This document shows, piece by piece, positions 17,375 through 64,000 of a DNA stretch of 64,000 nucleotides. The DNA is from an uncultured Bacteriovoracaceae bacterium (lineage in GTDB: Bacteria; Bdellovibrionota; UBA2428), in NCBI GenBank assembly GCA_937952285.1, contig CALFZE010000130.1, positions 18,282-82,281 of the forward strand. The letters are read 5' to 3'. A program made the position numbers and the translations under genes. Under the pieces are notes generated by a model. That model ran no database searches. It was not told the origin of the DNA and worked only from the letters and a program-made list of their open reading frames with translations. Positions within the stretch are counted from its first letter, which is position 1. The number at the start of each line of letters is the position of its first letter.

Positions 17375-18232
17375 ATGATCCAAATCCACGAGTTCGTCGG
17401 CGAAGAGAGCGGAACGCACCTGCTTATCTTGGGCGGGATCCACGGCAACGAAGTCTGCGGGCCCCGCGCGCTGAGCAAACTCGTCGACGAACTTCGGGGC
17501 GGAAAGCGCACGCTCGCGAAGGGACGCCTGACCATCGTTCCCGTCTGCAACCCCCGGGCCCACGCCGCCAACGTGCGCTTCATCGAAGAGAACCTGAACC
17601 GCGTGTTCGAGCCGAGCGACGCGCCGAAGTCCTACGAACGCCGTCTCGCCCAAAGCCTCGCGCCGCTCGTGGCCCGCTGCGACGCGCTGCTCGACCTGCA
17701 CAGCATGCAATCCAAGGGCGAAGCGTTTTCCGTGCTGAACCAGGATCGGCCGGGCTCGGCGTCGCTTTGCCGCGCGCTGGGCACGCGCTGGATGCTTTCG
17801 GGATGGCCCGAGGTCTACCGCGACCACGCCGACAAGGACAGCTGCTGCACGCAGAGTCTGGCCGACCGCCACGACAAAGCGAGCGCGCTCATCGAATGCG
17901 GACAGCACGGCAGCGTCGAAGCCGATCGCGTCGCCGAAATCGCGATCGAGCGCGCCCTCGCGCATTTCGGCCTGGGCGGGCTTGCGGCGGGTCACGTCGC
18001 GAACCTCGAGCCCCGGCGCGTTCATTTGCGCTCCGTGCATTTCCGCGAATCCGACGGCGACCGGCTCCTGAAGGACTTCGAGAACTTCGAAAGCCTGCGC
18101 CAAGGCGATCCCATCGTAAAGCGCGCCGATGGCCGCGTGGAGCACGCCCCCGAAGACGGGGTCATCGTTTTTCCGAGCCCCCATTCGGCGATCGGCACGG
18201 AGCTCTATTACCTTGGCAAGCTCCAAGGATAG
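17375..18232 (+). CDS. Succinylglutamate desuccinylase / aspartoacylase family (M14-like Zn hydrolase)
   Basis: 285 aa with the LILGGIHGNEVCG zinc-ligand motif typical of the AstE/AspA family. Confidence 0.75.
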   Translation: MIQIHEFVGEESGTHLLILGGIHGNEVCGPRALSKLVDELRGGKRTLAKGRLTIVPVCNPRAHAANVRFIEENLNRVFEPSDAPKSYERRLAQSLAPLVARCDALLDLHSMQSKGEAFSVLNQDRPGSASLCRALGTRWMLSGWPEVYRDHADKDSCCTQSLADRHDKASALIECGQHGSVEADRVAEIAIERALAHFGLGGLAAGHVANLEPRRVHLRSVHFRESDGDRLLKDFENFESLRQGDPIVKRADGRVEHAPEDGVIVFPSPHSAIGTELYYLGKLQG

Positions 18233-18327
18233 TCCCGCTAAGCCTCCGAAAGGACGGAGGATCCGTCCTTCAAAAATACTACACGCCGAGCTAACCCAAA
18301 CTTCACCGGAGCGGGTCTTATCGGCAT

Positions 18328-19386
18328 ATGGAACGTTTTCAACGTCGCCTCCGCCGCTCCCCTTCAATTCTCCTCTTGAGCTTCGTCGCCGGCCTCTCGG
18401 CCTGCGGCAAAGCGACCACGGGCGCCGAGCCCGAGGGCGTCGTCGATAACACGACCCCCCTCGGCACGACGCCCCTTCCCTCGAGTGCCCTCTCCCTCGA
18501 CGTCATCGCCGCGAGCGGGGCGGAATGTCCGGCGGGCGGTTCGGTCCTCGTGCGTTTCGTCGACGCGAACGGCAACGCGACGCTCGACGCGAACGAGAAC
18601 GTCGTCTCGCGTCTGCCGATCTGCAACGGCGCGCGCGGCACGGACGGCGGCGAGGGCATCGCCTCGGGGCTGCTCTTCGAGAACGCGACGAGCGCGAGCT
18701 GCGCTTACGGCGGCTCGAAGCTGACCGCCTTCGCGGACCGCAACGGCAACGGCCAACGGGAGATCGGCGAGGAAATCCGCTCCGAGACGACGATCTGCAA
18801 CGGCCGCGACGGCGCGGACGGTCGCGACGGCGAAGCGGCGAGCTTGAGCGTGGCGCCCGCGAGCGCGGCCCAGTGCCCGGGCGGCGGCGCCGTGTACACG
18901 AGCGTCTCCGCGTCGAGCTCGGCGCAGACGACCGTGGTTTGCAACGGCCAAGACGGTCGCGACGGCCGAAACGGACAGGATGGATCAAACGGGCAAGACG
19001 GAACGAACGGCCGCGACGGATCGAATGGCCGTGACGGCGTGGATGGCCGCGACGCGACCTACGCCATGGGCGCCGTCGGCTCGATCGTGAAGGGACGCGA
19101 CTACTCCGCCTGCCACCACGACTACCTCTACCTGCCGAATCGCGAGGAAGGCGCGCGCGGGTGGCTGCTCTTCCGTCACCAGGCCAACGGCGCGAACGAC
19201 CAGGGCGTCGGTCCGACCGGCTTCCAGGTGTGGAACGTCGACATCGGCGACTTCGCCCTCGTGTCCGAGGTCGGCGGCGTGACCTACTGCCGACTGCGCT
19301 GGCACGCCGAGAAACGGCTCCTCGAGTACGAAGTCGTCGACCGGAGCAACGGGCTAGCGGGCGAGACGGGCCAGATCTCCTTCTGA
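18328..19386 (+). CDS. Lipoprotein with three Cys-bounded modules and collagen-like Gly-X-Y repeats
   Basis: Lipobox LSAC. Three modules run C(P/A)xGG...CNG, each followed by a G-x-x run (CNGQDGRDGRNGQDGSNGQDGTNGRDGSNGRDGVDGRD). Confidence 0.7.
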   Translation: MERFQRRLRRSPSILLLSFVAGLSACGKATTGAEPEGVVDNTTPLGTTPLPSSALSLDVIAASGAECPAGGSVLVRFVDANGNATLDANENVVSRLPICNGARGTDGGEGIASGLLFENATSASCAYGGSKLTAFADRNGNGQREIGEEIRSETTICNGRDGADGRDGEAASLSVAPASAAQCPGGGAVYTSVSASSSAQTTVVCNGQDGRDGRNGQDGSNGQDGTNGRDGSNGRDGVDGRDATYAMGAVGSIVKGRDYSACHHDYLYLPNREEGARGWLLFRHQANGANDQGVGPTGFQVWNVDIGDFALVSEVGGVTYCRLRWHAEKRLLEYEVVDRSNGLAGETGQISF

Positions 19387-50455: not shown

Positions 50456-51246
50456 GCCCCGAAGCCGTCGTCCGCGACATCGAGCTCCGTTCGATCCTGG
50501 CGTTGTCGCCCCTCGAGATGGCCAAAGTGATCCTCTCCGGCGCGGACTACCATCCCGGCCTCTGGCGCGAATCCCCGGCCTGGGAGCAGATCCGCCACGA
50601 CGAACGCTACATGAAGTGGATCAACTTTCTGGAGATGCTCCAGCTTTCGCACAAAGGTCGCCGCTGGACGAAATCCCAGTGGGGCGCGGCGCACGCGCAC
50701 GTCCACCGGCTCGCCTACGGGCCGAAGAGCCGGGGCGATCTCCAAGCCTCGCCTTCCGAACGGATCAACGCGAGCCGCGCGGCGATCCGCCGGGCCATCC
50801 GGCATCGCTTCGACGAAGCCCGGTCGATCTCGCTCGTTTGCGTCGACGTCGAGACGGCTTACGAGTCCCTCTCGCCCGGCGAAAGCTACTACTTCATGGG
50901 CAGCGTCCTGCGCTTCGATCGGGACCGGTTTCGGGTCGGCTACGATCACGTCAAGGGCACGGCGACGCTCGACCTTGCGGTCGGCTTCGACGAAGTCTCG
51001 GACTTCGTCGCGCGAAGCTTCGGTCCCCGGCGTTTTTCCGACCTCTTTCTGAAGGCCGAAGTCGTGGCCCACGTCCATTTTTCGGAGGACGACGGGGGCC
51101 GCGTCGAAGCCGGAAACTTCGACGAAAGCGCGTGGACGAGGTTCTCCTTCTCGAGTCCGATCCTCGCCGCGGCGGAGCGCGAGATCCAGTCTCCGATCCG
51201 CTTCGCGCAACCTTTGGCGGTGAGCGATGTCACGCGACTTGTTTGA
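50452..51246 (+). CDS. Hypothetical protein (264 aa)
   Basis: ATGA overlap with the upstream gene; globular composition. Confidence 0.5.
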   Translation: MSPEAVVRDIELRSILALSPLEMAKVILSGADYHPGLWRESPAWEQIRHDERYMKWINFLEMLQLSHKGRRWTKSQWGAAHAHVHRLAYGPKSRGDLQASPSERINASRAAIRRAIRHRFDEARSISLVCVDVETAYESLSPGESYYFMGSVLRFDRDRFRVGYDHVKGTATLDLAVGFDEVSDFVARSFGPRRFSDLFLKAEVVAHVHFSEDDGGRVEAGNFDESAWTRFSFSSPILAAAEREIQSPIRFAQPLAVSDVTRLV

Positions 51247-51634
51247 GCTCGTTCGGCTCGCGAAGGACGAAGCCCTCGCGGCCGGCGTCGTCGGGCACGA
51301 AGGATCCCGGCTCCGGGTGCTCTTCTCGGAGCTTCGTCGCTGGCATTCCCCGACGGAGTGGATCGTCTTCTACCGGCACGCGGGCACCTACTACTACCCA
51401 CTCGCCTTCGAATTCCGCTCGGTGAACAACAACCTGCTGCACTTGGTCCTGGAACTCGGGATCCGGGACTTCGACGTCTTGGCGAGCTTCGTACAGGATT
51501 CCCTGCAGAGGCACGAGCGCCTCGAAACCGTCGTGCGCGCGCTCGTCGTGGAGATGCCGTCGGAGCCCCCCTATGCGGTGCCGCTCCGAGACTTCTCCAT
51601 TTCCGAGGCGCTCCGCGATCTCGTCTACTTGTGA
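51227..51634 (+). CDS. Hypothetical protein (135 aa)
   Basis: Overlaps the upstream ORF by 20 nt; same strand. Confidence 0.4.
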   Translation: MSRDLFELVRLAKDEALAAGVVGHEGSRLRVLFSELRRWHSPTEWIVFYRHAGTYYYPLAFEFRSVNNNLLHLVLELGIRDFDVLASFVQDSLQRHERLETVVRALVVEMPSEPPYAVPLRDFSISEALRDLVYL

Positions 51635-52929
51635 GCGTCCTTGAGCTCCGAAACGCGGACCGGGATCTGGAAGGACTTCTCGATCGCGATCTTCGCCTTG
51701 ATGAACTCGATCTTCAGTTCGGAGCGGCGCTTCTTGGCCTCGAGCCAGGTTTCCTCGGCGCCCTTGACGTCGGCCCCGTTCTTCACGCCCCGACCGAACT
51801 CGGCCAGCGTGGAGCGGTAGAGCCGCTCGGCCCGGGCTTCGTTGCTCACCTCGATGTCCACGCGTTGGGTGATCGACTGCAGTTTGCGGATGCCCGACTC
51901 GACCTCGGCCATGCCGCCGAGGAGCGCCTGCTTGGCGTTGAATTCGTCGCGTCGTAGCTCGGCCTCGGCCCGCGCGCCTTCCGCGCTCGTGCGGAAACCC
52001 GAAAAAAGCTCCCAGGAAGCCATCACCCCCGCCGAATAACTCACCCGCTCGCCGTCGAAACGATCGGCCAAAGGTAAAGCCCCGAAGCGGGCCTCGACGT
52101 CGAGCTTGGGCATCCACCCCGCCCGCGACGCCTTGAGCGCCGCGAGCGATCCCTGCGCCGTCAGGCTGGCCTGCCGCACGCTCTCGCTCCTCTCCTTCAC
52201 GAGGGCCAAGTAGGAATCGACCGTCCCCTCGAGGTGCCAATGCGGAAGCTCGCCGCGCGGCTCGAAGCCCATCCCGAGCTCCGGCCCGAGGCGTCGCACG
52301 AGACTCAGCTTGATCTCGTCGAGCTCCTGCTTCGTTCGATTGAGTTCGGACAGCAGCGAAGAATCCCGGAGCTCGAAATCCATGAGATCCGACTCGGAGG
52401 AAAGTCCCGAAGCCTTGCGCCGTTTGACCGCCCCCAGGTGCTTCGCGTTCAGCTCGATCGACTCCGCCACGTAGTCGTGGACGCGCTTCTTGAAGAGGTA
52501 GTCGTAAAAGAGGCCTTCGACCTCGAGCCGAAGCTCGTTCACGGCCTGCTCGTAGCGGCTTTCGGAGAGCTGCCGGAGCGTGTCGGCTCGCCGACCTTCG
52601 TTACGATCGGCGAGCCCATTGAAAAGGTTCCAACGGCCGTAGACGAAGCCGACGGGCGCCGACTCCCGCGCGCCCGCGCTCCCTTCGACCTCGAAGCCCC
52701 CGGCGACGCCGAGCTTCGGGTAGAAGTTCGAGCGCGACGAACGAAGCGCGGCCGCCTGGACCGAGACCTCCGCCTTCAAAGCCTGCACCCCGAAGTTGTT
52801 CGCGACGGCGTAGGCTTTGGCGTCTTCGACGCCGACGTAGCGGACGCCCGGCTCCGCTCCCCACGCGAGGGACGAAGCGAGGGTACCCAGGACCAAGGCC
52901 AGTCGTCCAAGCGGCTCCATAGGCTTCAC
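51625..52929 (-). CDS. Outer-membrane efflux protein (TolC/CzcC-like OMF)
   Basis: 434 aa with a signal peptide and two tandem OEP repeats rich in coiled-coil heptads. Confidence 0.75.
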   Translation of the reverse strand: MKPMEPLGRLALVLGTLASSLAWGAEPGVRYVGVEDAKAYAVANNFGVQALKAEVSVQAAALRSSRSNFYPKLGVAGGFEVEGSAGARESAPVGFVYGRWNLFNGLADRNEGRRADTLRQLSESRYEQAVNELRLEVEGLFYDYLFKKRVHDYVAESIELNAKHLGAVKRRKASGLSSESDLMDFELRDSSLLSELNRTKQELDEIKLSLVRRLGPELGMGFEPRGELPHWHLEGTVDSYLALVKERSESVRQASLTAQGSLAALKASRAGWMPKLDVEARFGALPLADRFDGERVSYSAGVMASWELFSGFRTSAEGARAEAELRRDEFNAKQALLGGMAEVESGIRKLQSITQRVDIEVSNEARAERLYRSTLAEFGRGVKNGADVKGAEETWLEAKKRRSELKIEFIKAKIAIEKSFQIPVRVSELKDAHK

Positions 52930-52932
52930 TCC

Positions 52933-53358
52933 TCAGTTTCTTTCGACTTTGTAGGCCACGCTGTCGGCCTTGCCGTTGATCTTGAAGGCGACCTTGAGCG
53001 TGTAGAGGTGGCTCTTCTTGGGATCGAAGCTCGTCTCGAAGTGATCCGCGTTCGACTTGAGCACGAGCTTCGTGACGACGGGCTTCGCGTTCTTGGCCGG
53101 CACGACCTCGGCCGTCGCCTCGACGTCCGAGAGCGCCGTCATCGGCAACGCCTTCGTCTTGCCGTCGTAGGGATAAATTTTGAGGACGTTGCCGATGCGA
53201 ACGAGCTCGAGGTAGCCGCCCAGCGCGGGCTGGATCTCGCCGCCCTTGGGCGCCGCGACGGCGCCGGGAACGCCGTGATCGTGCCCCTCGCCGGCCGCGG
53301 CCGAGAAGCCGCCACCCAGGATGGCCAACAGTGCGATCGTCGAAGACAATTTTTTCAT
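52933..53358 (-). CDS. Small periplasmic protein (141 aa) encoded between the RND pump and the OMF
   Basis: The start MKKLSSTIALLAILGG is preceded by AAAGGAGAGAAA, 10 nt after the RND pump's TAA. It has a signal peptide and an N-terminal GEGHDHG. Confidence 0.55.
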   Translation of the reverse strand: MKKLSSTIALLAILGGGFSAAAGEGHDHGVPGAVAAPKGGEIQPALGGYLELVRIGNVLKIYPYDGKTKALPMTALSDVEATAEVVPAKNAKPVVTKLVLKSNADHFETSFDPKKSHLYTLKVAFKINGKADSVAYKVERN

Positions 53359-53368
53359 TTTCTCTCCT

Positions 53369-56300
53369 TTATTCATTTCCTTCGTCCTCCCCTCGGAGGA
53401 CGCTTCTTTCGGACGCCTTCCGGGCGAAGGCGTAGAACGCGGTGGGCGTGACGACGAAATCCAGGATCGTCGAGCTCAGCAGACCGCCGACGATGACGAC
53501 CGCCACGGGGTGAAGGATCTCGCTCCCGGGTTGTCCCTTCGCGAAGACGAGCGGCATCAAGCCGAGCGCGGCCGTGAGGGCCGTCATCAAGACGGGAATG
53601 AGCCGCTCGAGCGATCCGCGGATGACCATCTCCTTCGTGAACTTCTCGCCCTCGTGCTTCATGAGGTGCAAGTAGTGCGAGATCATCATGATCCCGTTGC
53701 GGCTCGCGATCCCGCAGAGGGTCACGAGGCCGATGAGGCTCGCCACCGAGAAGACGCGATCGATCGCGAAGAGCGAATAGAGCCCGCCCATAAAGGCGAG
53801 CGGGACCGTGAGCATGATCTGCGCCGTGATCATCGCCGACTTGAAATGCGCGAAGAGCACGAAGGCGATGCCGAGTACGCTCACCAAGCTGAACAATACG
53901 ATCCGGCGCGTCGCCGAGCGCTGGGCCTCGAACTGGCCGCCGTACGCGACGTAGTAGCCTTCGGGGAGCTCGACCTTCTCCTGCACCCGCCGTTGGATGC
54001 TCTCCACGACGCTGCCGAGGTCGCGGCCGGCCACGTTGCCGTAGACCACGATGCGTCGCATGCCGTTCTCGCGGTTGACCTGGTTCGGTCCGCTCGACTC
54101 GTAGACGTCCGCGATCATGTCGAGGGTCACGCGCCGGCCGTCGGGCATCGTCTTGAAGGGCGTATTCTTCATGAGCTCCAGGTTGCCGCGCGAGACGTCG
54201 TCAAAACGGTAGAAGACGTCGTAGACTTTCTGGTCCTCGATGACCTGCGAAACGATGCGGCCGCCGAAGGCGAGCTCGAGCATCTTGGAGACCTCGCCCA
54301 CGTTGAGACCGTAGCGCAGCGTCTCCTCGCGCAGGAGATGGATCTTGACCTGGGGAATGAGGGCCTGCTGCTCGACGTTCAGATCGACGAGCCCCTCGAT
54401 ATCCTGGATCGCCCCGCGAAGCTCGGCCGCCTTGACCCGTAGCATGGCGAGGTCGCTCCCGAAGATCTTGATGGCGAGCTGGGCGTTCACGCCCGACAGG
54501 AGGTGATCGAGCCGGTGCGAGATCGGCTGGCCGATGTTGACCGCGACGTTCGGGATGGCTTCCAGGTTCTCGCGCAGCTCGTCGAGGATGGCCTCGCGTG
54601 AGCGCGTCGCGTCCTTGCGGAAGGAGACGTCGATCTCGGAGACGTTAACGCCTTCGGCGTGCTCGTCGAGCTCGGCCCGGCCCGTCCGGCGCGAAACGAA
54701 CTTCACTTCGGGGGTCTTCAGGATCAGGTTTTCGGCCTCGGAGCCAATCGCGTTCGATCGCTCGAGCGAGGTTCCCGGCACCGAAACGACCGAGACCATG
54801 GCCGTGCCTTCGTTGAACTTCGGCAGGAAGTCCTTGCCCATGAAGGGGAGCAACGCGATCGAGCCGAGGAACATCACAAAGGCGACCGACAGCACTTTTT
54901 TCGGGTGATCGAGCGCCCACTCCAGGATGCGGCGATCGAAGGCCTTGAGCTTCGTGACGATCTTCGTCTCGTGGTGTTCCTTGAACTCCGCGTTCCGGAA
55001 GAAGAAAGAACAGAGCACGGGCGTCACGGTGAGCGACACGAGAAGCGACGCGCCCAGCGCCGTCACGTAAGCGATGGCGAGCGGGGTGAAGAGACGACCC
55101 TCGAGTCCATCCAGCGCGAAGAGCGGGATGAAGACGAGCGCGATGATGACCGTCGCGAGGACGATCGAGTTGCGAACCTCGCTCGACGCCTCGAAGACGA
55201 TCTTGAGGATCGACCGCTTGGCGCCCGCGGCCCGGTTCTCCTTGAGACGCCGAAAGACGTTCTCGACGTCGACGATGGCGTCGTCCACGACCTCGCCCAC
55301 GGCGATGGCGAGACCCCCGAGGGTCATCGTATTCACCGAAAGCCCGAAGAGCTCGAAGACGATCGCCGTCACGAGGAAGGACAGCGGAATGGCCGTGAGC
55401 GTGATGGCCGTCATGCGGAGGTTCGCCAGGAAGAGCAGCAGGATGACCGTCACGAGGATGCTGCCGTACTTGAGCTTGCCCTTGACGCCCGCGATCGAGA
55501 CCTCGATGAAGTCCGACTGCTTGAAGATCTCCGGGTTCACTTCGACGCCCTTCGGAAGCGTCCGTTGGATCTCGGCGATGGCCGCGTCGACCCGCTCCGT
55601 GAGCGCGACGGTATCCGTGCCGGGTTGTTTTTGGATCGACATCACGACGGCGGGCTTGGCCATGAAGGAACCGTCCCCGCGCTTGGTGCGCGGGCCGATC
55701 TTCACTTCGGCGACGTCCTTGATGAGGATTGAGCGGCCCAGGTGAACGCCGATGACCGTGTTCTCGATATCCTCGACGCTCTTCACGGCGCCGATGTTGC
55801 GGACAAGAAACTCCTTCTGATCCTTATCCAAGAAGCCGCCCGTCGTGTTCGTACCGACGTGACCCAGGTACTCGTCGAGCGCCTGCAGGTCGAGCTGGTA
55901 GTTCTTGAGCTTGGTCGCCGAGAAAAGGATCTGGTACTGCTTGAGCCCGCCCCCGATCGAGATGACCTGGGCGATGCCCGGGATCGTGAGGAGCCGGGGC
56001 CGGATCGTCCACTCCGCCAGGGTCCGCAGGTCGAGGGGCGTGACTTCGGGGTTGCTCGAGGACAACGCGATCGTCTGGATCTGCCCCATGATCGAGCTGA
56101 TCGGCCCCATCACGGGCTGGATCCCCTCGGGAAAATGCTCCGCCGCGACCGCGAGTTTCTCCGCGACGAGCTGCCGGTTGCGGAAGATGTCCGTTCCCCA
56201 GTCGAACTCGACGTAGACCACGGACAGGCCGACGCCCGACGACGAGCGGATCCGCTGCACCCCGGGGAGGCCGTTCAGGTTCGACTCGAGCGGCAAGGTC

Positions 56301-56494
56301 ACGAGCGTCTCGACCTCCTCGGGCGCCATGCCACCCGCCTCGGTCATGATCGTCACGGTCGGCCGGTTCAAATCCGGAAAGACGTCGATGGGAAGTTTGA
56401 AGAGCGTGGCCCCGCCCCATACGACGATCAGCGCCACGAGGGCGAGAACGACGAGCCGGTGCCGAAGGGCCGCCTTGATGATGAGATCTAACAT
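53369..56494 (-). CDS. Heavy-metal-efflux RND transporter permease (CzcA/CusA family)
   Basis: 1041 aa with 12 TM helices and two large periplasmic loops. N-terminus MLDLIIKAALRHRLVVLALVALIVVWG...DVFPDL. Confidence 0.9.
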   Translation of the reverse strand: MLDLIIKAALRHRLVVLALVALIVVWGGATLFKLPIDVFPDLNRPTVTIMTEAGGMAPEEVETLVTLPLESNLNGLPGVQRIRSSSGVGLSVVYVEFDWGTDIFRNRQLVAEKLAVAAEHFPEGIQPVMGPISSIMGQIQTIALSSSNPEVTPLDLRTLAEWTIRPRLLTIPGIAQVISIGGGLKQYQILFSATKLKNYQLDLQALDEYLGHVGTNTTGGFLDKDQKEFLVRNIGAVKSVEDIENTVIGVHLGRSILIKDVAEVKIGPRTKRGDGSFMAKPAVVMSIQKQPGTDTVALTERVDAAIAEIQRTLPKGVEVNPEIFKQSDFIEVSIAGVKGKLKYGSILVTVILLLFLANLRMTAITLTAIPLSFLVTAIVFELFGLSVNTMTLGGLAIAVGEVVDDAIVDVENVFRRLKENRAAGAKRSILKIVFEASSEVRNSIVLATVIIALVFIPLFALDGLEGRLFTPLAIAYVTALGASLLVSLTVTPVLCSFFFRNAEFKEHHETKIVTKLKAFDRRILEWALDHPKKVLSVAFVMFLGSIALLPFMGKDFLPKFNEGTAMVSVVSVPGTSLERSNAIGSEAENLILKTPEVKFVSRRTGRAELDEHAEGVNVSEIDVSFRKDATRSREAILDELRENLEAIPNVAVNIGQPISHRLDHLLSGVNAQLAIKIFGSDLAMLRVKAAELRGAIQDIEGLVDLNVEQQALIPQVKIHLLREETLRYGLNVGEVSKMLELAFGGRIVSQVIEDQKVYDVFYRFDDVSRGNLELMKNTPFKTMPDGRRVTLDMIADVYESSGPNQVNRENGMRRIVVYGNVAGRDLGSVVESIQRRVQEKVELPEGYYVAYGGQFEAQRSATRRIVLFSLVSVLGIAFVLFAHFKSAMITAQIMLTVPLAFMGGLYSLFAIDRVFSVASLIGLVTLCGIASRNGIMMISHYLHLMKHEGEKFTKEMVIRGSLERLIPVLMTALTAALGLMPLVFAKGQPGSEILHPVAVVIVGGLLSSTILDFVVTPTAFYAFARKASERSVLRGEDEGNE

Positions 56495-56521
56495 TCTATT
56501 CCTCGCCGATTTCGGAGGCCG

Positions 56522-57292
56522 TTAGAGAAGGACGCGAAGACCGAGCTCGATCGACCACGCCCGCAGGGGCGCGCTCGCCGACAATCCGCGGTGGATCGCC
56601 CCGGACAACGTGATTCCGTCAAGCCAAGCGTCGGGGGCCCGCGACGAAGCCGCCGTCTCGAAAAGGCTCAGGCCCCCCCGCAGCGCGAGGTTCGGGATCC
56701 AGTAGCCTTGGTCCATGCCGTCGAGCGCGCCGCTCTGGTAGAAGAACTGCGCCCCCAACGACGGCGCCAGGAAGGCCGTGACCGCCGGGGCCGCGCGAAG
56801 CGGGTGGCTCACGCGCACGCCCGCCGCCAGGGGCAACGCGTGCACGCTCACGAAGTCCTTGAGCACGGCGCTCTGCGCCGAAACCACGTCGACGAGCGCC
56901 TCGCGCATCCCGTAACCCACCGCGACGAACGGCTCGACGCCGAATCCCCGCGCGTCGAACTTCTTCGACGCCGAGATCTGCACCGAGGGAAGCGCGCCCA
57001 TCTGCGAAGCGTAGTCGACCGAGAAGAAAGCGTTCGACAGCTCGAGCGCCGACCACGAGAGGTACGAGGCGCCGAACTCCAGATGGAAGGGACTCGCCTC
57101 GCGCGCGAGGGAAGCGTCCATCTCCCGCGCGGATCGCGAAAAGAGGCTCCGGAAGTTGGATTCGTCGACCGCGATGCCGGGCGTCGCCGGCGCTGCGGCG
57201 GGCGCCGCGGCCTTGGGCTTTTCGCGGGCGCCGACGGGAAGCGCGAAGAACGCGCCCAGACCCAAGGCGATGACTCGTTGACGAGCAAACAT
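56522..57292 (-). CDS. Small outer-membrane beta-barrel-like protein (256 aa)
   Basis: The start MFARQRVIALGLGAFFALPVGA was verified at 57292-57290. It shows alternating amphipathic strands and ends LGLRVLL. The track ORF begins 66 nt upstream. Confidence 0.5.
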   Translation of the reverse strand: MFARQRVIALGLGAFFALPVGAREKPKAAAPAAAPATPGIAVDESNFRSLFSRSAREMDASLAREASPFHLEFGASYLSWSALELSNAFFSVDYASQMGALPSVQISASKKFDARGFGVEPFVAVGYGMREALVDVVSAQSAVLKDFVSVHALPLAAGVRVSHPLRAAPAVTAFLAPSLGAQFFYQSGALDGMDQGYWIPNLALRGGLSLFETAASSRAPDAWLDGITLSGAIHRGLSASAPLRAWSIELGLRVLL

Positions 57293-57294
57293 GA

Positions 57295-57813
57295 TTAACG
57301 ACCTCCTTCGCGGGAGAGCCGGAGCGTCCCCGACGCGCCGACCGAGGCGGCGCTCCAAACGCCGACGAGATCCGCCCCCTGCACCGAAACGTTGAGCACG
57401 AGATCCTGGAACTGCGAGTGAACGACGACGAGGTTCAGGCGTCCCGGGGCCGCGAAGTACTCCGCCGAGCCGACCGGGGCGTCGGAATACTCGCCGACCT
57501 CTTCGCTGCCGTAAAGAAAGCGCAGGTAGCCGATCAGCTTGGGCACCAGCACGGGATCGACCCCCGCCCCGCTTTGCCCTTCCGGGACGTCGCGCACCTC
57601 GAGATTCAGGACGACGGGCTGCTCGTAATCGGACGCGCCGAGCAAGTTCCCGGCGTACCGGCCGCCGACCTGGCCGAGCTCCGAGCGTTTGACCTCGGCC
57701 AAGTTCATGTCGCGCTGGCGGGCGATCTCGCGATCGCTCGGCCGGCGCTGGCTACAAGCCGACAGCGCCGCGAGCGAGAGCGCGAGCGCGAAAAGCCGGA
57801 TGTTCTTTCTCAT
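57295..57813 (-). CDS. Lipoprotein (172 aa)
   Basis: Lipobox LAALSAC. Its stop is 2 nt before the next ATG. It shares a VGVWSAASVGASG motif with neighbouring paralogs. Confidence 0.55.
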   Translation of the reverse strand: MRKNIRLFALALSLAALSACSQRRPSDREIARQRDMNLAEVKRSELGQVGGRYAGNLLGASDYEQPVVLNLEVRDVPEGQSGAGVDPVLVPKLIGYLRFLYGSEEVGEYSDAPVGSAEYFAAPGRLNLVVVHSQFQDLVLNVSVQGADLVGVWSAASVGASGTLRLSREGGR

Positions 57814-58631
57814 TGTACGCTCTCCAATTCGATCGTGCCGACGCGGCCGAGGCCGTCCGCGAAGACGTCCGCGACGAAATCGCCGTCGGGGGAAAGCACG
57901 CCCTTCAGCGTGATCCCGTGCTGGGCCGTTTTAAGGGTGAGGTAACGGTTGTAGAAGTTGAACTTCGCCTCGGCGATCGGCGTCTCGACGAACTCCCCCG
58001 AGCCGAAATCGCCCAGGTAAAAGCGCAGGTTGCCGGAGATGCGGAGCTCGACCGTTCCTCCTTCCGCGGGAGTTTGCGTCGTGACGAGCGACAGGCTGAG
58101 TCGCTCGGGAAGGTTGGATTCGGGATGGGTGTTCACGAGCGTCCCGCGGTAGTGGCCGGTGACCGTCTTCACGAGAACCGAGCCGCGCTCGATCGCGGGC
58201 ACCTGCGACTTCTGGGCGGCGAAGCGACCGACGCGACCCGCGCTCGACGAAAACCATTCCCCCGTGATGGCGCCGTTGCGAAGCGTCCCGATGAAACTCA
58301 CGTCGTTGCCGTCGGCGCGGAGGCTCAGCTGCCGGGTGAGCAGGTTCATCGGCACGTCCGGGTACTCGTAGGTCAGGAACTCGTTCGAGCTCCAGTCGCC
58401 GAAGATCATCCGCACGCTCGCCGAAATCTTGAGCGTGCCGCCGATGTTCACGGTGCGAATCGTGAGCGTGGCGAACTGATGGTACTTCGTCGGCTCCGCG
58501 CCCCGGGGTTCGTGGTTGAGGACCGTCCGGTAGGTCCCTTGGATGGACTCGGTTTGCGCCCCCGCGACCGGGGTCGCGAGAAAGGCGGCCCCGAGCGCGA
58601 GCGAAGGAAGGTATCGGGTGAAGAAGTTCAT
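57810..58631 (-). CDS. Secreted protein with two copies of a ~130-aa module
   Basis: Signal peptide; modules IFGDWSSNEFLTYEYPDV ... GEWFSSSAGRVGRFAA; ATGA overlaps at both ends. Confidence 0.6.
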   Translation of the reverse strand: MNFFTRYLPSLALGAAFLATPVAGAQTESIQGTYRTVLNHEPRGAEPTKYHQFATLTIRTVNIGGTLKISASVRMIFGDWSSNEFLTYEYPDVPMNLLTRQLSLRADGNDVSFIGTLRNGAITGEWFSSSAGRVGRFAAQKSQVPAIERGSVLVKTVTGHYRGTLVNTHPESNLPERLSLSLVTTQTPAEGGTVELRISGNLRFYLGDFGSGEFVETPIAEAKFNFYNRYLTLKTAQHGITLKGVLSPDGDFVADVFADGLGRVGTIELESVQ

Positions 58632-60207
58632 GGTTTCTCCTCGTTCAAGACTTTGAACAGACGGGGCGCCTCGAAGACGGGCATGATCGTGCCGTAGCCG
58701 TTGGAGGTCATGAGGGCGCTCAAGTGGGCGCCCTCATGGCGTTTGGCGCTAAAAAGGCGGTCGTCGCCGTAGAGCAGCGCGAGGCGCCCCACGTAAAAAT
58801 CATAGCTGCCGGCGACGACGTTCTCCTTGGCGGCGCCGCGGAACCACATCGTGCCGCCAAGCTGCAGCGGATAGTACGGGTTCTCGGTGTTGGGCGGCGT
58901 CGTGCCCTGGAAGACTTTCAGATCGAGCGAGAAGGTGTCGTGTCCGTAGCGGGCCGTGAGCGGGACGACGCGACGGGCGTCGGGCCGGGGCTTCACGCCG
59001 CCGTCTTTGGCCGCCTCGAAGGACCCCACCCGGCCGAAGAGCAGCGAGTACCACTCCCCGCGGATCGTGCCGTCCTTCAGCGTCGTGACCTTGAGGAAGG
59101 CGTCGACGTCGTCGTCCAGCCGACTCAAGACGAAGTCCGAACGGAGGATCGGATTCGGGTAATCCCGCGGCTCGAAGCGGTAGGCGATCGCCTCGTGGCT
59201 GCGCTCCGACCCGAAGAAGAGCGTCGCCACGGCCGAGATCCGGAGCGTCGACTCTCGTCCGTCCGTGGCCTGGTAGGTGGCCACGTCGATGCGAATGGGC
59301 TGGTAGGCGTCGAGGTACTCGTGGTGGACGTAGCCCCGGTAGGCGCCCGCGATCGCGGAAGGCGACGACGAAGCGGCCGCTTGCTCGCGCACGAAGCTCG
59401 CCTTCGCTCGCGGCGGCGCGAACTCGCGCGAGCGGGACTCGGAAGAGCGCCGCTCGAAGCGACAGCCCGCCCCGCAGTTCAGCGCGTTCCCCTCGACTTT
59501 ACAGTCAAGGTTCGAGAGGCGGCCCACGAGCTCAAGCTGGCCTCGGTAGAAGTCGTAGGTCCCCTGGGTGAAGGTGTCGCGGTTGCACACCCGCCCGCTC
59601 CCTTGGTCGAAGCAGAGGGAATCGTTGAGCACGCCGACTTGCGCCCGCACGTCGTAGGCCGCGAAGGGCGACCCGATGCGCGAGGAGTCCCCGGTGGAGC
59701 GGAAAGTGTGGATCTGGAGCGCCCGATTCTCGCCTTCGCACTTGCCGACGTATTCGCCGTTCAACGGCTCGATGAGCGGCCGGGCCGGATTCGCCACGCC
59801 GTCGAGGTTGAGCGAAAGCTCGCCGATCTGCCCAGCTTGGCCACGAGCTCTCCCGCCGCGAAACGCGTCGTGACGATCGTCGCGTCTTCGTCGGCCGAGT
59901 CGAAGGTGAGAACGCCGGTCACGAGTCCGTAGTGAACCTTGTCGAAATGGTACGAGACGTACTCCCCACTCCGGAAGTCGCCGAAGTGGAGAGTCAAGAC
60001 GGCCTTGAGGTCGAGCTCGTTGCCGGCGGTCCGCGACATCACGAAGTCGAGCTTCGCGAGCTGCTCCCTTCCGAGTCGCTCGTGCTTGAGGGTCCCGACG
60101 TAGCGGCCAAAGACGCCGCTTTGCGCCCACGCCCGAACGGAAGCAAACGAAGCCGCGCAAACGAGAACGAGGACGGACAGACGGCGAACGAGTTTTCGAC
60201 CTCCCAC
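58628..60207 (-). pseudogene. Paralogous secreted protein (~527 aa) interrupted by a frameshift near 59800-59830
   Basis: The N-terminal 149 aa (GTG at 60207, RBS AAAGGGGG, signal peptide, HFGDFRSGEYVSYHFDKV) are in the frame of track ORF 59761-60657. The rest (IRGEWYSLLFGRVGSFEAA...) is in the frame of 58628-60433, which has no start codon near the switch. Confidence 0.5.
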
Positions 60208-60218
60208 GATCGCCCCCT

Positions 60219-60593
60219 TTACTCGCTTCGCGAGGCGGCCTTCTCGACCGTATCGCCTTCCTTGAAGTCGACGCCTTCGGGGAAGCTCGCGACCGAATAG
60301 TGGGCGTCGTAAACCTTGCGAATCGTTCCCGTCCCGATCGTGCGGGGACGGCAGCGGAACTCGGCGGCGCCCGAGGCGCGGCCGCCGGCGACCTTCTCCG
60401 CGACGCATTCGTGCCGGACGACGCGAACGGCATCGCCCACGGCGACCTGTTTGTTGCCGAGGCAGACGTGCGCCTCGCCGCCCTCCGTCTTCATGACGAC
60501 GGACCCGCGGTGTTCGCCTTCGTGAGGTTTCGCGGTCGCGCAAGCACTCAAGACCAGTCCAATAAGCCCAAGCATGGGCATTGAGATTTTCAT
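60219..60593 (-). CDS. Small His/Cys-containing lipoprotein (124 aa)
   Basis: Lipobox LVLSAC with an internal start MKISMPMLG. It is the first gene of the co-directional cluster. Confidence 0.5.
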   Translation of the reverse strand: MKISMPMLGLIGLVLSACATAKPHEGEHRGSVVMKTEGGEAHVCLGNKQVAVGDAVRVVRHECVAEKVAGGRASGAAEFRCRPRTIGTGTIRKVYDAHYSVASFPEGVDFKEGDTVEKAASRSE

Positions 60594-61109
60594 GTTTTCC
60601 TTTTCGTGGACCCACGCGCCCAAACGCGTGGGTCGAGGGTGGGCACGGGCCGTTCACGGCCCTTTCGTTAAGTGGAAGCGGCGGAAGAAAAGGCGACTAA
60701 GCGCGCGGGGGACGGAAAAGCGAAGCGAGGTGCGGCGAGCCGGGGACCGACCAATCGGTCGCGGCTTTGAGGGCCGACGTAGCGGGTTCGAAGCTTCTCA
60801 AAGCGATTTGCCGGATCGGCAGCACGCAAGAAGTACAAGCATGAACGTGGACATGGGCATGATCGGCTTTGCGGTCCTCGTCGTGCGGGTCCGCGCCATG
60901 GTCCTCGTCGAGGCAACCCGCCGCGTCCTGGCAGGCCAGCTCAGCCGTCTGAAGATGCGTGATCGATTCGAAGCGGGCCTGGAGACCGGAGAGCGCGAAG
61001 GCTCCCAGCATCAAGAGCGAAAAGAAGAACTTCTTGGGGCCCACGAGTCTTTGATACCAAATCCCTCGCATCTTGAGAAGCCCCTTTAAATGACTCCGCC
61101 TCCGTCCGC

Positions 61110-61808
61110 TTAGACTTCGTGCAGGAAGAGCTCCGACGCCAGACGCACGTGCGTCGAAGGCGCCGGCGCCTTCGCGGCGCGCCCCACGCCGAACACCATG
61201 ACGACGCGCGAAGCCCGCCCCAGCCCGAGCAAGCGCTTCACGCGCTTTTCGTCGAAGCCTTCCATCGGGCAGCTCGCGTAACCCTGATCGACGACCGAGA
61301 GCATGAAGTTTTCGCAGGCCAGGGCCGTCGTCTTCGTCACGACCTCGACGAGTTCCGCGCGCGTGGAGGGCCCGCGCGGCACGGGCCGCCAAAGCCCCAC
61401 GACGCCAAAGAAAATCCGTTTGAGCAAACCCGCCAAGCCGAAGGGATCTTGCCAATAGGCCGCCGGCACGACTTTGCGGTAGTAGTTCGTGAGGTAGGCC
61501 GGTACGGGGCCTTCGCTCGCGAGCTTTTCGAGCAGGAGAGCGCGGTTGCGGCGCCACGTGTCCGTCCGCGCAACGGCCACGACGAGTTCCGCGGCCGTGC
61601 GCGCGGCCGCCTGCGAGAAGCAAGCTTCGACCAGCTTAGCCTTCGAGGACGGCGTCCGGACCCAGTAGAATTCCCAAGGCTGCATGTTCGAGGAATTCGG
61701 CGCGAGCAGGGCGTCCTCGAGCGCCCGACGGATCACGGCCTCCGGAACGGCTTCCGACGCAAACTGACGAACGCTCCGGCGAGCGGCGAGGACGGCCTTG
61801 AATTCCAT
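61110..61808 (-). CDS. Nitroreductase-family protein
   Basis: N-terminal RRSVRQF FMN-binding motif and 232-aa length. Confidence 0.75.
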   Translation of the reverse strand: MEFKAVLAARRSVRQFASEAVPEAVIRRALEDALLAPNSSNMQPWEFYWVRTPSSKAKLVEACFSQAAARTAAELVVAVARTDTWRRNRALLLEKLASEGPVPAYLTNYYRKVVPAAYWQDPFGLAGLLKRIFFGVVGLWRPVPRGPSTRAELVEVVTKTTALACENFMLSVVDQGYASCPMEGFDEKRVKRLLGLGRASRVVMVFGVGRAAKAPAPSTHVRLASELFLHEV

Positions 61809-62409
61809 GCGACCTTTTTACGCCCCTTATCGCTTCGACGCACCCACGAAACGAAAGACGCACCCAGCCACATCTGTAACTTGCCCTTACATAAAAATCG
61901 GAGGCTCCAGGCATTCGCCCGCTCTCCGCACGAGAGGCATCAATGCGACGCCTCACTATCGTGAGCACGGCGAGTGGGAGGTCTACGACTATCTGCACGC
62001 AACTGATTGGCGCAAAGTAGAACGCCGCCTTCATCGAGCCTTTTCCAGCAGCAAGAAGAAATCAAATTCAGCAAATGAACTCTATTCGGCTTCTCTTCTG
62101 GAAGCGCAAAACGCACTTCACAGCGCGCCCCTCGATCTACAAGTTGGCCGGGAGAAACTCGAACGCTTCAGACAAGACAGAGCACTGAAGTCCTACTTGA
62201 ACGAGTCGCTTCTTACGACTTGCCTATACGGACACCTGGACCCACAGGGAACATGGGCACTGAAGCTATTTCCCCCTACGGCGGGCGGACGCCAGTTCAC
62301 ACTAAGCATTGGCTCACACGAAGTCGTCTTCTCGGCAAACACTTCGGCGAATCATCATTGCCTCGTAATGGATGAACTCGCGCGCGATATTCCCGAATTA
62401 AAGAGGTGA
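61798..62409 (+). CDS. T5orf172 (GIY-YIG-like) domain protein; start uncertain
   Basis: PYIKIGGSRHSPALRTRGINA...EWEVYDYLHATDWRKVERRLHRAF fits the T5orf172/Mug113 pattern (KIGxT...R...E...H..F). The gene lies in a roughly 48% GC segment. Confidence 0.45.
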   Translation: MNSMRPFYAPYRFDAPTKRKTHPATSVTCPYIKIGGSRHSPALRTRGINATPHYREHGEWEVYDYLHATDWRKVERRLHRAFSSSKKKSNSANELYSASLLEAQNALHSAPLDLQVGREKLERFRQDRALKSYLNESLLTTCLYGHLDPQGTWALKLFPPTAGGRQFTLSIGSHEVVFSANTSANHHCLVMDELARDIPELKR

Positions 62410-62694
62410 CTGGAGAAGCACCGAGGCGGCTGCCAAAGGGCTGCCTATAGAACAGCCGGGGATCGAGCCCTCTCGGTCCATTTCAACGGCGATCTTTCCG
62501 ACGCTCAGCGCTTTCTTAAGGTTCGCGGAGTACGACGGGCGCTAGTCGCCTACTGGGCAGATTAACTCGCCAACTTACGAGAACGAGCGGAACAAAGCCC
62601 GTACGCGAGGTATTACGACCACAATGCTGTCATGGACCTCGTGGACTATTAGCGCGCCTATTCTCCATAGGCCCGCAACCCTAGCCTTGCGCTA

Positions 62695-63114
62695 TTAGTC
62701 GCACCGATACGCTGAGGTGAAAAACTGGGGCGACCCCTGAGGAGCTGGCTGTTGGTGAATAAAGTACGTCGGAAAGAATTTCGATCCGGGGATTAGAGTC
62801 CAAAAGAAGACGTCTCCAGAATCTAGCTTCTCGTAAAATGACCTATCACCAACTTTCGTCAGTTTTGACTGGCGACCAGAATTCTTAAAAAGCGCATGAT
62901 CCTTGGTGACGGCAATTGAGACTACTTCGGCGTCCTTTGGAGTGCGCACCTCACCCTCCATCCGCCCAGTTTTTAGTTCGGTCGCGGCTCCCATACGATG
63001 AGACAAATGCGACATTGTTTCCAGCTTGCAGGAGTAGATCCTATCCTGAGCTTGGGCCGAATGCGTGACTGCAAAAATCCAAACACTCAATCCAACCAAC
63101 AAGGTTCTCTTCAT
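62695..63114 (-). CDS. Small secreted hypothetical protein in the low-GC island
   Basis: Internal start MKRTLLVGLSVWIFAVTHSAQAQ (signal peptide). Confidence 0.4.
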   Translation of the reverse strand: MKRTLLVGLSVWIFAVTHSAQAQDRIYSCKLETMSHLSHRMGAATELKTGRMEGEVRTPKDAEVVSIAVTKDHALFKNSGRQSKLTKVGDRSFYEKLDSGDVFFWTLIPGSKFFPTYFIHQQPAPQGSPQFFTSAYRCD

Positions 63115-63221
63115 TCCCTCAAATGTAACACGAGCCGAGAACCCGTGGGTAGACATGCGGGAGGCGCGCCAAACAATCCCGAACGAGCATCTCACGCCGA
63201 CGGCGAGCTGCGAGCTCGGAA

Positions 63222-63983
63222 CTAAATGCCTCGACCCTGTACCCTTATCCGAAAGTCCTCAGGCGTTGTCCTAATCCAAACTGAAGCAAAAAGGTGTCCC
63301 ACATCCGGGCCTTGGCCTGGGTGTGGCGGAAAAGGTTGAATCTGCCCATTCAAGACTTTTCGGATACCGATATGCCTCTGCCCGCTGAGATGAAGAGCAA
63401 TCTCAGCGTCCTCAACCCGTATCGGACGCCCATACCCAGCCCACCGAACAAATGGAATTGATAAATAGACCCCCTGATACGTCGACAGAGACCCTGAGCT
63501 CTTAGCAAAGATCTCGCTACTCTCTTTGGCCACAATTTTTGCATAAAACTCAGCTCTCTTGCCGGGCTCAAGAATACGAAACTGATAGAGCTCGACTAGA
63601 GTGAACTCCACCGTCTCCCCATTTCCATTCGGGACCAGCCTAGCAAGCACGGTGTCACGGACAGGGAGCGCAATGGTGTACGCGCTAAAAGGGCAGTTTT
63701 CTTCAGTCCATTCACCCGAGAATCGCACTTTTACAACCCCACTTAGAGTCTTTATGCGATCCTGCTCAATGGCCAACCGGCTAGTGAGTTCCTGTATTCG
63801 AATGGCCTGACTAAGATTCTCATTCTTCAAGAGCAAAGAATCATTCTGAATACTGAGCACCTGATTCTCAGAGGCTGCAACCTTCAAACTCTGTTCATTG
63901 GACTCAATTCGACCAAGATGCGCAGCCCAAACCGCCAAAGCCGCGACGAAAAAAGAAACAGACTTTAATGCCTTTCGGGCCAA
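63222..63983 (-). CDS. Membrane-anchored hypothetical protein with a coiled-coil segment (low-GC island)
   Basis: Signal/anchor MARKALKSVSFFVAALAVWAA followed by heptad-rich LSIQNDSLLLKNENLSQAIRIQELTSRLAIEQDRIKTL. Confidence 0.45.
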   Translation of the reverse strand: MARKALKSVSFFVAALAVWAAHLGRIESNEQSLKVAASENQVLSIQNDSLLLKNENLSQAIRIQELTSRLAIEQDRIKTLSGVVKVRFSGEWTEENCPFSAYTIALPVRDTVLARLVPNGNGETVEFTLVELYQFRILEPGKRAEFYAKIVAKESSEIFAKSSGSLSTYQGVYLSIPFVRWAGYGRPIRVEDAEIALHLSGQRHIGIRKVLNGQIQPFPPHPGQGPDVGHLFASVWIRTTPEDFRIRVQGRGI

Positions 63984-64000
63984 TGGCTGACTTTCAAAAA

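Follow-up and report, generated by a model that had tools for sequence, protein, structure and literature searches.

To our knowledge, every characterised resistance-nodulation-division (RND) pump that uses a TolC-like outer membrane channel needs a membrane fusion protein (MFP), the alpha-hairpin of which opens and seals onto the channel. Smaller periplasmic proteins also take part in metal handling: CusF is a five-stranded OB-fold that uses Met, His, and Trp as ligands, and ZinT, with its lipocalin-like fold, relies on a His triad. A lipocalin-like protein, HpnT, was proposed from microsynteny to work with the RND protein HpnN (PMC12324291). The stretch investigated here, referred to as the window, is 64,000 nucleotides (nt) of DNA from an uncultured Bacteriovoracaceae bacterium (Bdellovibrionota; GenBank assembly GCA_937952285.1, contig CALFZE010000130.1, positions 18,282 to 82,281 of the forward strand). 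It carries three adjacent minus-strand genes, which we call A, B, and C, in an operon with an RND permease and a TolC-family outer membrane efflux protein (OEP). The three encoded proteins share a beta-barrel module that is a previously unclassified domain family of known general fold, and they belong to a conserved operon type in which the MFP, or its hairpin, appears to be missing. A, B, and C are probably dedicated accessory subunits of this pump system.

An earlier note, made from the sequence alone, had described the products as three adjacent secreted proteins (172, 273, and ~527 amino acids, aa) with one to three copies of a common module. The similarity was compared with 300 shuffles using Smith-Waterman scores and was statistically supported for each pair, with z values of 23.6 for B1-C3, 19.9 for B1-B2, 13.3 for B1-C1, 12.8 for B2-C1, 12.2 for C1-C3, and 7.2 for A-B2. 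Profile methods also placed the shared module far above chance. A hidden Markov model (HMM) built from the B modules alone (48 homologues) recovered C1 (4e-11) and C3 (4e-14), and hhalign gave a probability of 99.5% (E ~1e-23) for C1 and C3 against the B modules. The module of A was recovered at E = 5e-20 after two HMM iterations over related loci. A contains one copy and B two, and C contains two canonical (type I) copies and two of a divergent type II, giving the architectures I for A, I-I for B, and I-II-I-II for C. The family is recognisable by the motifs GxYxG...FGDxxSxE(F/Y)...GxW(F/Y)S...GxVGxF. The type II modules C2 and C4 matched each other with an hhalign probability of 96% (E = 1e-9) and have the motif GxY...NPF...GSYDFYxGxLxL in common. 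Their kinship to the canonical module appears marginal (56%, E = 1e-4); the C2 region of some orthologues was matched by the module HMM at ~1e-11.

Modules within the window are 19-34% identical, whereas orthologues of B from other genomes are 46-77% identical, which indicates that the duplications are old. Judged by these identities, A, B, and C are ancient paralogues, each with its own orthologues across Bdellovibrionota. The "local gene amplification" put forward in the earlier note did not stand in the sense of a recent tandem event, as this is ruled out by the low identity among the modules of the window.

The fold of the module was investigated with an AlphaFold2 model of B built from a 48-sequence alignment, with a predicted local distance difference test score (pLDDT) of 91.8 and a predicted template modelling score (pTM) of 0.80. 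The model consisted of two units of eight sequential beta-strands and no helix besides the signal peptide, each module forming an eight-stranded antiparallel up-and-down barrel of ~115 aa. A Foldseek search of B against the PDB returned the two-barrel proteins BFA1 (5yvf, E = 1.5e-5) and AttH (2ich, 7e-4) as best matches. An erythrocruorin linker barrel, nitrobindin, fatty-acid-binding proteins, and the barrels of TbpB, HpuA, and hemophilin were also among the matches, and the template modelling (TM) scores were 0.2-0.4. Based on the model, the module looks like a calycin-like fold without a close solved relative. Searches of Pfam and NCBIfam, even at E <= 10, gave no match for A, B, C, 31 isolated modules, intact C orthologues, or multi-module forms, with the sole exception of an isolated YceI-like Pfam match (E = 0.058) in one five-module orthologue. 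A PDB sequence-profile search with B also gave no match. The first impression that the module lies outside known families was thereby borne out by profile searches.

The family is small and taxonomically narrow. When 1.84 billion representatives were searched exhaustively with a profile, only 363 proteins came up at E <= 1e-3, and their lengths fall into groups that correspond to one, two, three, four, or five modules. Homologues of B formed 102 clusters, all of ~260-290 aa and none with a Pfam match. With ~360 representatives at 50% identity, none of which is annotated, the domain merits a family definition. A genome scan identified 26 loci, all in metagenome-assembled genomes (MAGs) and mostly labelled Bdellovibrionota (Bacteriovoracaceae, Pseudobdellovibrionaceae, and Bdellovibrionaceae); a few carried generic labels only, and two were labelled Polynucleobacter. 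The latter (L029 and L030) contain a full module operon in MAGs of a betaproteobacterial label, which may reflect mis-binning or a horizontal transfer from Bdellovibrionota. No match was found when B was searched by tblastn against a plasmid collection.

Annotation of ~30 loci by phmmer showed one conserved cluster, nearly always in Bdellovibrionota MAGs, with the order B, A, D, RND, E, OEP and with C either first or last. Genes B, A, and D were adjacent in that order across these loci, with the OEP and RND genes in the same cluster. The link between the repeats and an efflux pump, suggested earlier from their proximity in the window, is therefore real and strongly conserved. Within the window, A, B, and C are translationally coupled, as the C/B and B/A junctions are ATGA stop/start overlaps, and gene overlaps of 4-8 nt in the operon indicate co-translation. 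One locus (L003) kept C-B-A-D-OEP without an adjacent RND gene. The number of modules was variable. A occurred either by itself or with one, two, or four additional B-like modules fused to it (lipoproteins of ~293, 415, and 665-686 aa), and 1, 2, 3, 4, or 5 modules were carried on lipoprotein A across related loci and library matches. Between one and three B-like pairs were present per operon, either free or fused to the lipoprotein. The description of the products as secreted proteins was confirmed, since A begins with a lipoprotein signal (...LSLAALSAC, followed by SQ) and B and C each carry an N-terminal Sec signal peptide.

The presence of MFPs was also investigated. No HlyD-family protein was found among ORFs (open reading frames) of 230-700 aa in the window, and no MFP was found in the precomputed Pfam annotation of loci with the same operon type (L001, L004, L006, and P0002). 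A scan of 85 unassigned ORFs from eight loci identified seven HlyD_D23 proteins of 303-357 aa, all in variant operons: two each in L012, L018, and L020, and one in L029. The gene order of the variant type was B-A-D-MFP-OEP-C-(X)-MFP-RND, of which L029 shows only the MFP directly upstream of the RND gene. All seven variant MFPs lacked the whole CusB alpha-helical domain (a gap of ~46 residues) and kept the membrane-proximal, barrel, and lipoyl domains. The variant RND proteins carried the CzcA-type motif DFG-DGA-VEN in transmembrane segment 4 (TM4) in L012 and L029, where TM4 was covered. Gene E was present only in operons without an MFP, and the modules were present in both operon types. As the window type has no MFP and the variant MFPs have no hairpin, every module operon appears to lack the MFP hairpin that normally contacts the outer membrane channel. 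Searches of the literature for RND pumps that lack a fusion protein or adaptor, and for heavy-metal efflux in Bdellovibrio, turned up nothing relevant, and the module family and operon type are not described in the literature searched.

Two further observations were made in these loci. L020 encodes a Cys-rich secreted protein of 336 aa without a Pfam match between C and the second MFP (17576-18583, plus strand). Second RND operons in L014 and L017 consist of a ~410-aa ORF, a ~180-aa protein (L014 1320-1844, plus strand; L017 6784-7362, minus strand), and an RND protein with a CzcA-type TM4, with no HlyD match. In the ~180-aa protein, a tract rich in His and Glu precedes a short segment that resembles only the membrane-proximal part of an MFP. 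The ~410-aa ORF may be an OEP, as judged from the examination of only a similarly placed ORF in L008.

Residue conservation (a residue was called conserved at >=85%) was used to look for hints on function. No His, Cys, or Met was conserved in A besides the lipobox Cys, and none was conserved in B, where Glu and Asp were the only conserved potential ligands. C contained one conserved His (H87) and six conserved Cys, which look like disulfides. The module proteins have a His content of ~1% and an isoelectric point (pI) of 5-6, a composition that rules out a metal sponge. The periplasmic binding or chaperone role suggested for the module in the earlier note thus has no direct support in the case of metals, although the module may bind some other ligand. 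The Glu of FGDxxSxE was nearly invariant in all module types, B2 contained a strongly conserved open-end loop (NTxPxSNLPER), and many of the conserved residues of B were polar. Median identity across loci was 58% for RND, 54% for B, 44% for A, 42% for C, 37% for OEP, 34% for E, and 30% for D.

Protein E seems a better metal-chaperone candidate than the modules, because it combines a conserved H-x-G-H...PHGG motif with a variable His/Asp/Glu-rich tract. It is composed of a signal peptide, the motif H(E/G)GHxxPGAxPxAPHGG, the tract, which varies in length, and a ~95-aa beta domain, with a His content of 3-9%. E-type ORFs were found between the RND and OEP genes in L004, L006, L008, L009, L014, L015, L017, L019, L021-L023, L026, and L031. 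No relative was identified in Pfam or in the PDB, and E was rejected as a remnant MFP, a CusF homologue, or a module (hhalign probability <=4% for all three). E could represent a new kind of partner that funnels metal to the RND protein.

Protein D was modelled with AlphaFold2 from eight sequences, and ten-residue blocks across residues 71-256 averaged a pLDDT of ~89-97, with one block at 75. The top Foldseek matches in the PDB were OmpX, NspA, Ail, the OmpA transmembrane domain, and OmpW (E = 2e-6; target TM-score 0.56-0.70), with OprG also among them. A word-index homologue search with D returned only 3-7 proteins, and PDB sequence-profile searches with D and with E gave no match. The RND protein passes the TIGR00914 family model (819.8 bits vs. 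a cutoff of 701.45), and its TM4, AIAVGEVVDDAIVDVEN, is unusually acidic. Aligned to E. coli CusA, it lacks the Met triad (M573, M623, and M672), with Ser, Val, and His at these positions, and it also lacks the CzcA TM4 motif DFG-DGA-VEN. The substrate of the pump therefore cannot be assigned. Coordinates of all features are given in Table 1.

Table 1. Operon genes, modules, and associated features (window positions unless a related locus, numbered L, is named).
Feature	Position	Strand	Description
OEP	51625-52929	minus	TolC-family outer membrane channel, 434 aa; Pfam OEP; TIGR01844 E = 4e-23
Gene E	52933-53376	minus	147-aa secreted His-motif protein (GHDHGVPGA...PKGG), between RND and OEP
RND permease	53369-56494	minus	CusA/CzcA family, 1041 aa; TIGR00914 819.8 bits
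Gene D	56522-57292	minus	256 aa; predicted outer membrane 8-stranded beta-barrel with N-terminal periplasmic helix; always directly after A
Gene A	57295-57813	minus	172-aa lipoprotein: signal peptide, lipobox LSAC, conserved helical linker, one beta-barrel module
Module of A	57307-57675	minus	residues 47-169; module HMM E = 5e-20
Gene B	57810-58631	minus	273 aa, Sec-secreted, two modules (B1 and B2)
Module B2	57816-58169	minus	canonical (type I)
Module B1	58206-58550	minus	canonical (type I)
Gene C	58628-60207	minus	~526 aa stitched; architecture I-II-I-II; two overlapping frames
Module C4	58631-59002	minus	divergent type II
Module C3	59003-59359	minus	canonical (type I)
Module C2	59360-59800	minus	divergent type II; six conserved Cys
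Module C1	59803-60120	minus	canonical (type I)
Small lipoprotein	60219-60575	minus	118 aa, lipobox LSAC, HEGEH motif, three Cys
Small secreted protein	60697-61071	minus	HxHxH..C..C, C-terminal FRPPRA
Counterpart of small secreted protein	L003 5930-6322		
Counterpart of small secreted protein	L006 5891-6244		
Counterpart of small secreted protein	L008 7868-8296		
Counterpart of small secreted protein	L009 7934-8296		
Counterpart of small secreted protein	L010 7943-8314		
Counterpart of small secreted protein	L011 1072-1452		
Counterpart of small secreted protein	L014 8015-8359		
HlyD_D23 proteins	L012 12151-13149 and 14464-15534		variant operon
HlyD_D23 proteins	L018 13450-14358 and 17148-18056		variant operon
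HlyD_D23 proteins	L020 13602-14624 and 18583-19587		variant operon
HlyD_D23 protein	L029 14131-15165		variant operon

The third protein of ~527 aa described earlier exists as the neighbour of the other two, but C is not a single ORF in the window. The stretch 58631-60207 is 1577 nt long, which is not divisible by 3, and the reading frame, which starts with GTG, switches near 59832. Alignment to the orthologues of L006 and L003 showed that C is 16 nt short relative to the intact 529-aa orthologue in L006 (...AKL[RSASG]GQIGELSL...); intact orthologues measure 528-531 aa. In locus L002, an independent assembly of the same sequencing run, the contig begins exactly at the frame-break base. The public record DDRA01000170.1 (the same contig, L001) reads ...AKLR in frame as in the orthologues and continues with 108 N at the break. 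Because the 16-nt deficit, the contig start, and the N run coincide, the frame break is very probably an assembly artefact rather than a true deletion. C is thus very probably ~531 aa in the organism, and the ~16 nt to be restored are expected to read ...AKLRSASGGQIGELSL... The window and DDRA01000170.1 differ at two spots, both N runs in the record (L001 8717-8824 and ~7310-7430), one of which coincides with the frameshift in C. At both, an assembly gap seems to have been closed in different ways.

Upstream of C, the gene of the 118-aa lipoprotein stops 9 nt (60210-60218) before the GTG start, and the spacer holds an AAGGGGG ribosome-binding site. A similar-sized gene in this position was present only in the closest orthologous locus. 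The small secreted protein beyond it has counterparts upstream of C in seven other loci, with an invariant C-terminal (F/L)xPPR(A/V/S), and showed a weak, sub-threshold match to Pfam DUF2946 (E = 0.052) with full-length coverage. Genes surrounding the operon were metal-related (cation diffusion facilitator (CDF) transporters, a P-type ATPase, ZnuABC, ArsR, and Dsb proteins). A promoter and terminator scan of 51000-62500 gave counts equal to the shuffled expectation. The GC content of 62001-64000 was 0.52, compared with ~0.65 elsewhere in the window, and IS3-type transposase genes are located in L001 just past the window end. The metal-efflux cluster may lie at the margin of a region that is mobile or was acquired.

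Our favoured but tentative explanation, to which we assign a probability of roughly 35%, is that the module proteins form a periplasmic scaffold, tethered to the outer membrane, through which pump and channel are coupled. A, B, and C are probably dedicated envelope subunits of a Bdellovibrionota-specific efflux operon composed of the small lipoprotein, C, B, A, D, RND, E, and the outer membrane factor (OMF). Lipoprotein A and the OmpX-like D would serve as anchors that hold the rigid two-barrel B and the four-module C under the outer membrane, beside and in association with the TolC-like channel. Such an assembly could couple, seal, or stabilise the channel-pump junction, replacing the job of the MFP alpha-hairpin both where the MFP is absent (window type) and where it has no hairpin (variant type). 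Metal capture would then fall to the His-rich E or to the hairpin-less MFPs rather than to the modules. The locus that keeps C-B-A-D-OEP without an RND gene ties the modules to the outer membrane side, and the conservation of B, nearly as high as that of RND and often concerning polar residues, fits a subunit with several partners. We infer an outer membrane location of A, as the lipobox Cys, kept in every A-type orthologue, has no Asp after it in any of them, although this +2 sorting rule comes from E. coli and may not hold in Bdellovibrionota. A more far-reaching version, which we regard as doubtful, proposes rings or chains of small barrels (C, B, and A with D) hung from the outer membrane as a new coupling apparatus, by which a CusA/CzcA-type RND pump could work with a TolC-like channel without an alpha-hairpin MFP, with E replacing the metal-funnelling part. 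Several further observations weigh against a coupling scaffold. The variable module number on A (1-5) fits autonomous binding units better than a machine of fixed geometry. Variant operons keep B at 46-55% identity, while their RND and OEP proteins, which are of another class, are only 31-35% and 27-29% identical; for an adaptor, one would expect co-evolution with the pump, and the conservation of B is independent of RND class. No MFP domain was present among the Foldseek top-50 of B, and an MFP could be encoded elsewhere in these incomplete genomes.

A role as periplasmic ligand carriers or buffers is nearly as likely as the scaffold. Each barrel or B-type pair would bind a substrate or substrate complex and hand it to, or take it from, the RND protein, with extra tethered copies raising capacity; candidate ligands are a hard divalent cation held by Glu/Asp/Asn/Gln/Tyr, a metal chelate or metallophore, or an oxyanion. 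Calycin-type eight-stranded barrels are classical small-ligand binders, and the fold assigned from the model and Foldseek agrees with this role, for which CusF in cusCFBA and the lipocalin-like metal binder ZinT/YodA are precedents. The free or lipoprotein-fused B-like pairs, one to three per operon, and the conservation of B across RND classes, as for a conserved ligand, also speak for carriage, as do the near-invariant Glu, the B2 loop, and the metal-related neighbours (CDF transporters, P-type ATPase, ZnuA, and ArsR). Yet A and B conserve no His, Cys, or Met, their composition is not that of a metal sponge, and the operon already encodes the His-rich E. Carriage also leaves the invariably adjacent D without a role and the coupling of an MFP-less pump to its channel unexplained.

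The remaining explanations are weaker. Co-regulated envelope protection outside the pump, either by MliC/Inh-like inhibitor or immunity barrels or by stabilisers of the outer membrane or peptidoglycan under metal stress, seems unlikely. Small eight-stranded periplasmic barrels and lipoproteins are often enzyme inhibitors, and such a function agrees with a conservation of B independent of pump class and with the locus without an adjacent RND gene, but the very tight linkage and translational coupling to the RND and OEP genes in essentially every locus argue against it, and no target enzyme is encoded nearby. We consider it rather improbable that the barrels shuttle a hydrophobic, lipid- or isoprenoid-like cargo between the RND protein and the outer membrane, with D as the site of insertion or exit. 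OmpW and OprG, both among the top fold matches of D, are channels for hydrophobic molecules; the weak YceI-like match (E = 0.058) in a five-module orthologue and the missing CusA metal-binding Met triad point the same way, as does the proposed partnership of the lipocalin-like HpnT with the RND protein HpnN for hopanoids (PMC12324291). Against this stand the score of the RND protein, well over the CusA/CzcA family cutoff, the unusual acidity of its TM4, a gene context that is metal-related throughout, the tract of E, which is typical of metal binding, and the mostly polar nature of the conserved module residues. Finally, chance similarity, or pseudogenes decaying after a recent local duplication as the broken frame of C might suggest, is refuted by the data: shuffle z values reach 24 and HMM E-values 1e-30, full-length orthologues of each paralogue are conserved in many genomes, and the frame break coincides with an assembly gap.

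This operon lineage keeps the pump and the channel, drops the MFP or its hairpin, and is invariably accompanied by five conserved secreted proteins that fit no known type; the new beta-barrel domain makes up three of them. Should these proteins prove to do the coupling, trans-envelope transport would have a solution of a new kind, and the system would put to the test which functions of an adaptor cannot be dispensed with; an apparatus of barrels would likewise be a new trans-envelope efflux architecture. If the modules instead carry substrate, they would represent a new family of periplasmic binding domains for handling metals or metal complexes.

Compared with known proteins, the module shares the eight-stranded antiparallel up-and-down barrel with the calycin-like proteins (lipocalins, YceI, and nitrobindin). 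It differs in having no sequence relationship to them and no Lipocalin or YceI signature (Pfam, NCBIfam, and PDB profile), having its own motifs instead, and neither barrel of B is followed by the C-terminal helix that packs on the lipocalin barrel (DSSP of the model). B is a rigid barrel pair like BFA1 and AttH, its top Foldseek matches, although TM-scores were only ~0.3-0.4. Slam-dependent surface lipoproteins (TbpB, HpuA, and hemophilin) were rejected as relatives, as the modules have no handle domain, D is OmpX-like and not Slam-like (DUF560), and Foldseek matches of B to these proteins were weak (probability 0.2-0.8, TM-score ~0.2). The modules resemble CusF and ZinT/YodA as small all-beta periplasmic proteins tied to heavy-metal handling, but those proteins have conserved metal ligands, whereas the modules conserve no His, Cys, or Met. 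The pairing of HpnT with HpnN is the nearest precedent in the literature searched. It involves another RND subfamily (hopanoid vs. CusA/CzcA) and another taxon, without an OEP or D partner, and HpnT is a single-domain protein without a sequence relationship to the modules. As secreted or lipoprotein partners of an RND pump and a TolC-like channel, A, B, and C occupy the same operonic niche as the MFPs (CusB, AcrA, the hairpin-less BesA, and the paired TriA/TriB). They lack the lipoyl, barrel, and membrane-proximal domains of MFPs, with no HlyD_D23, HlyD_3, or Biotin_lipoyl_2 match for A, B, C, or the 31 modules in a scan that detected the genuine MFPs of the variant loci at E = 1e-18 to 1e-32. 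A is a lipoprotein as is AcrA, but is predicted to be anchored in the outer and not the inner membrane. TriABC carries two different fusion proteins, as do variant operons, and the two hairpin-less MFPs of these operons resemble a TriAB-like adaptor pair.

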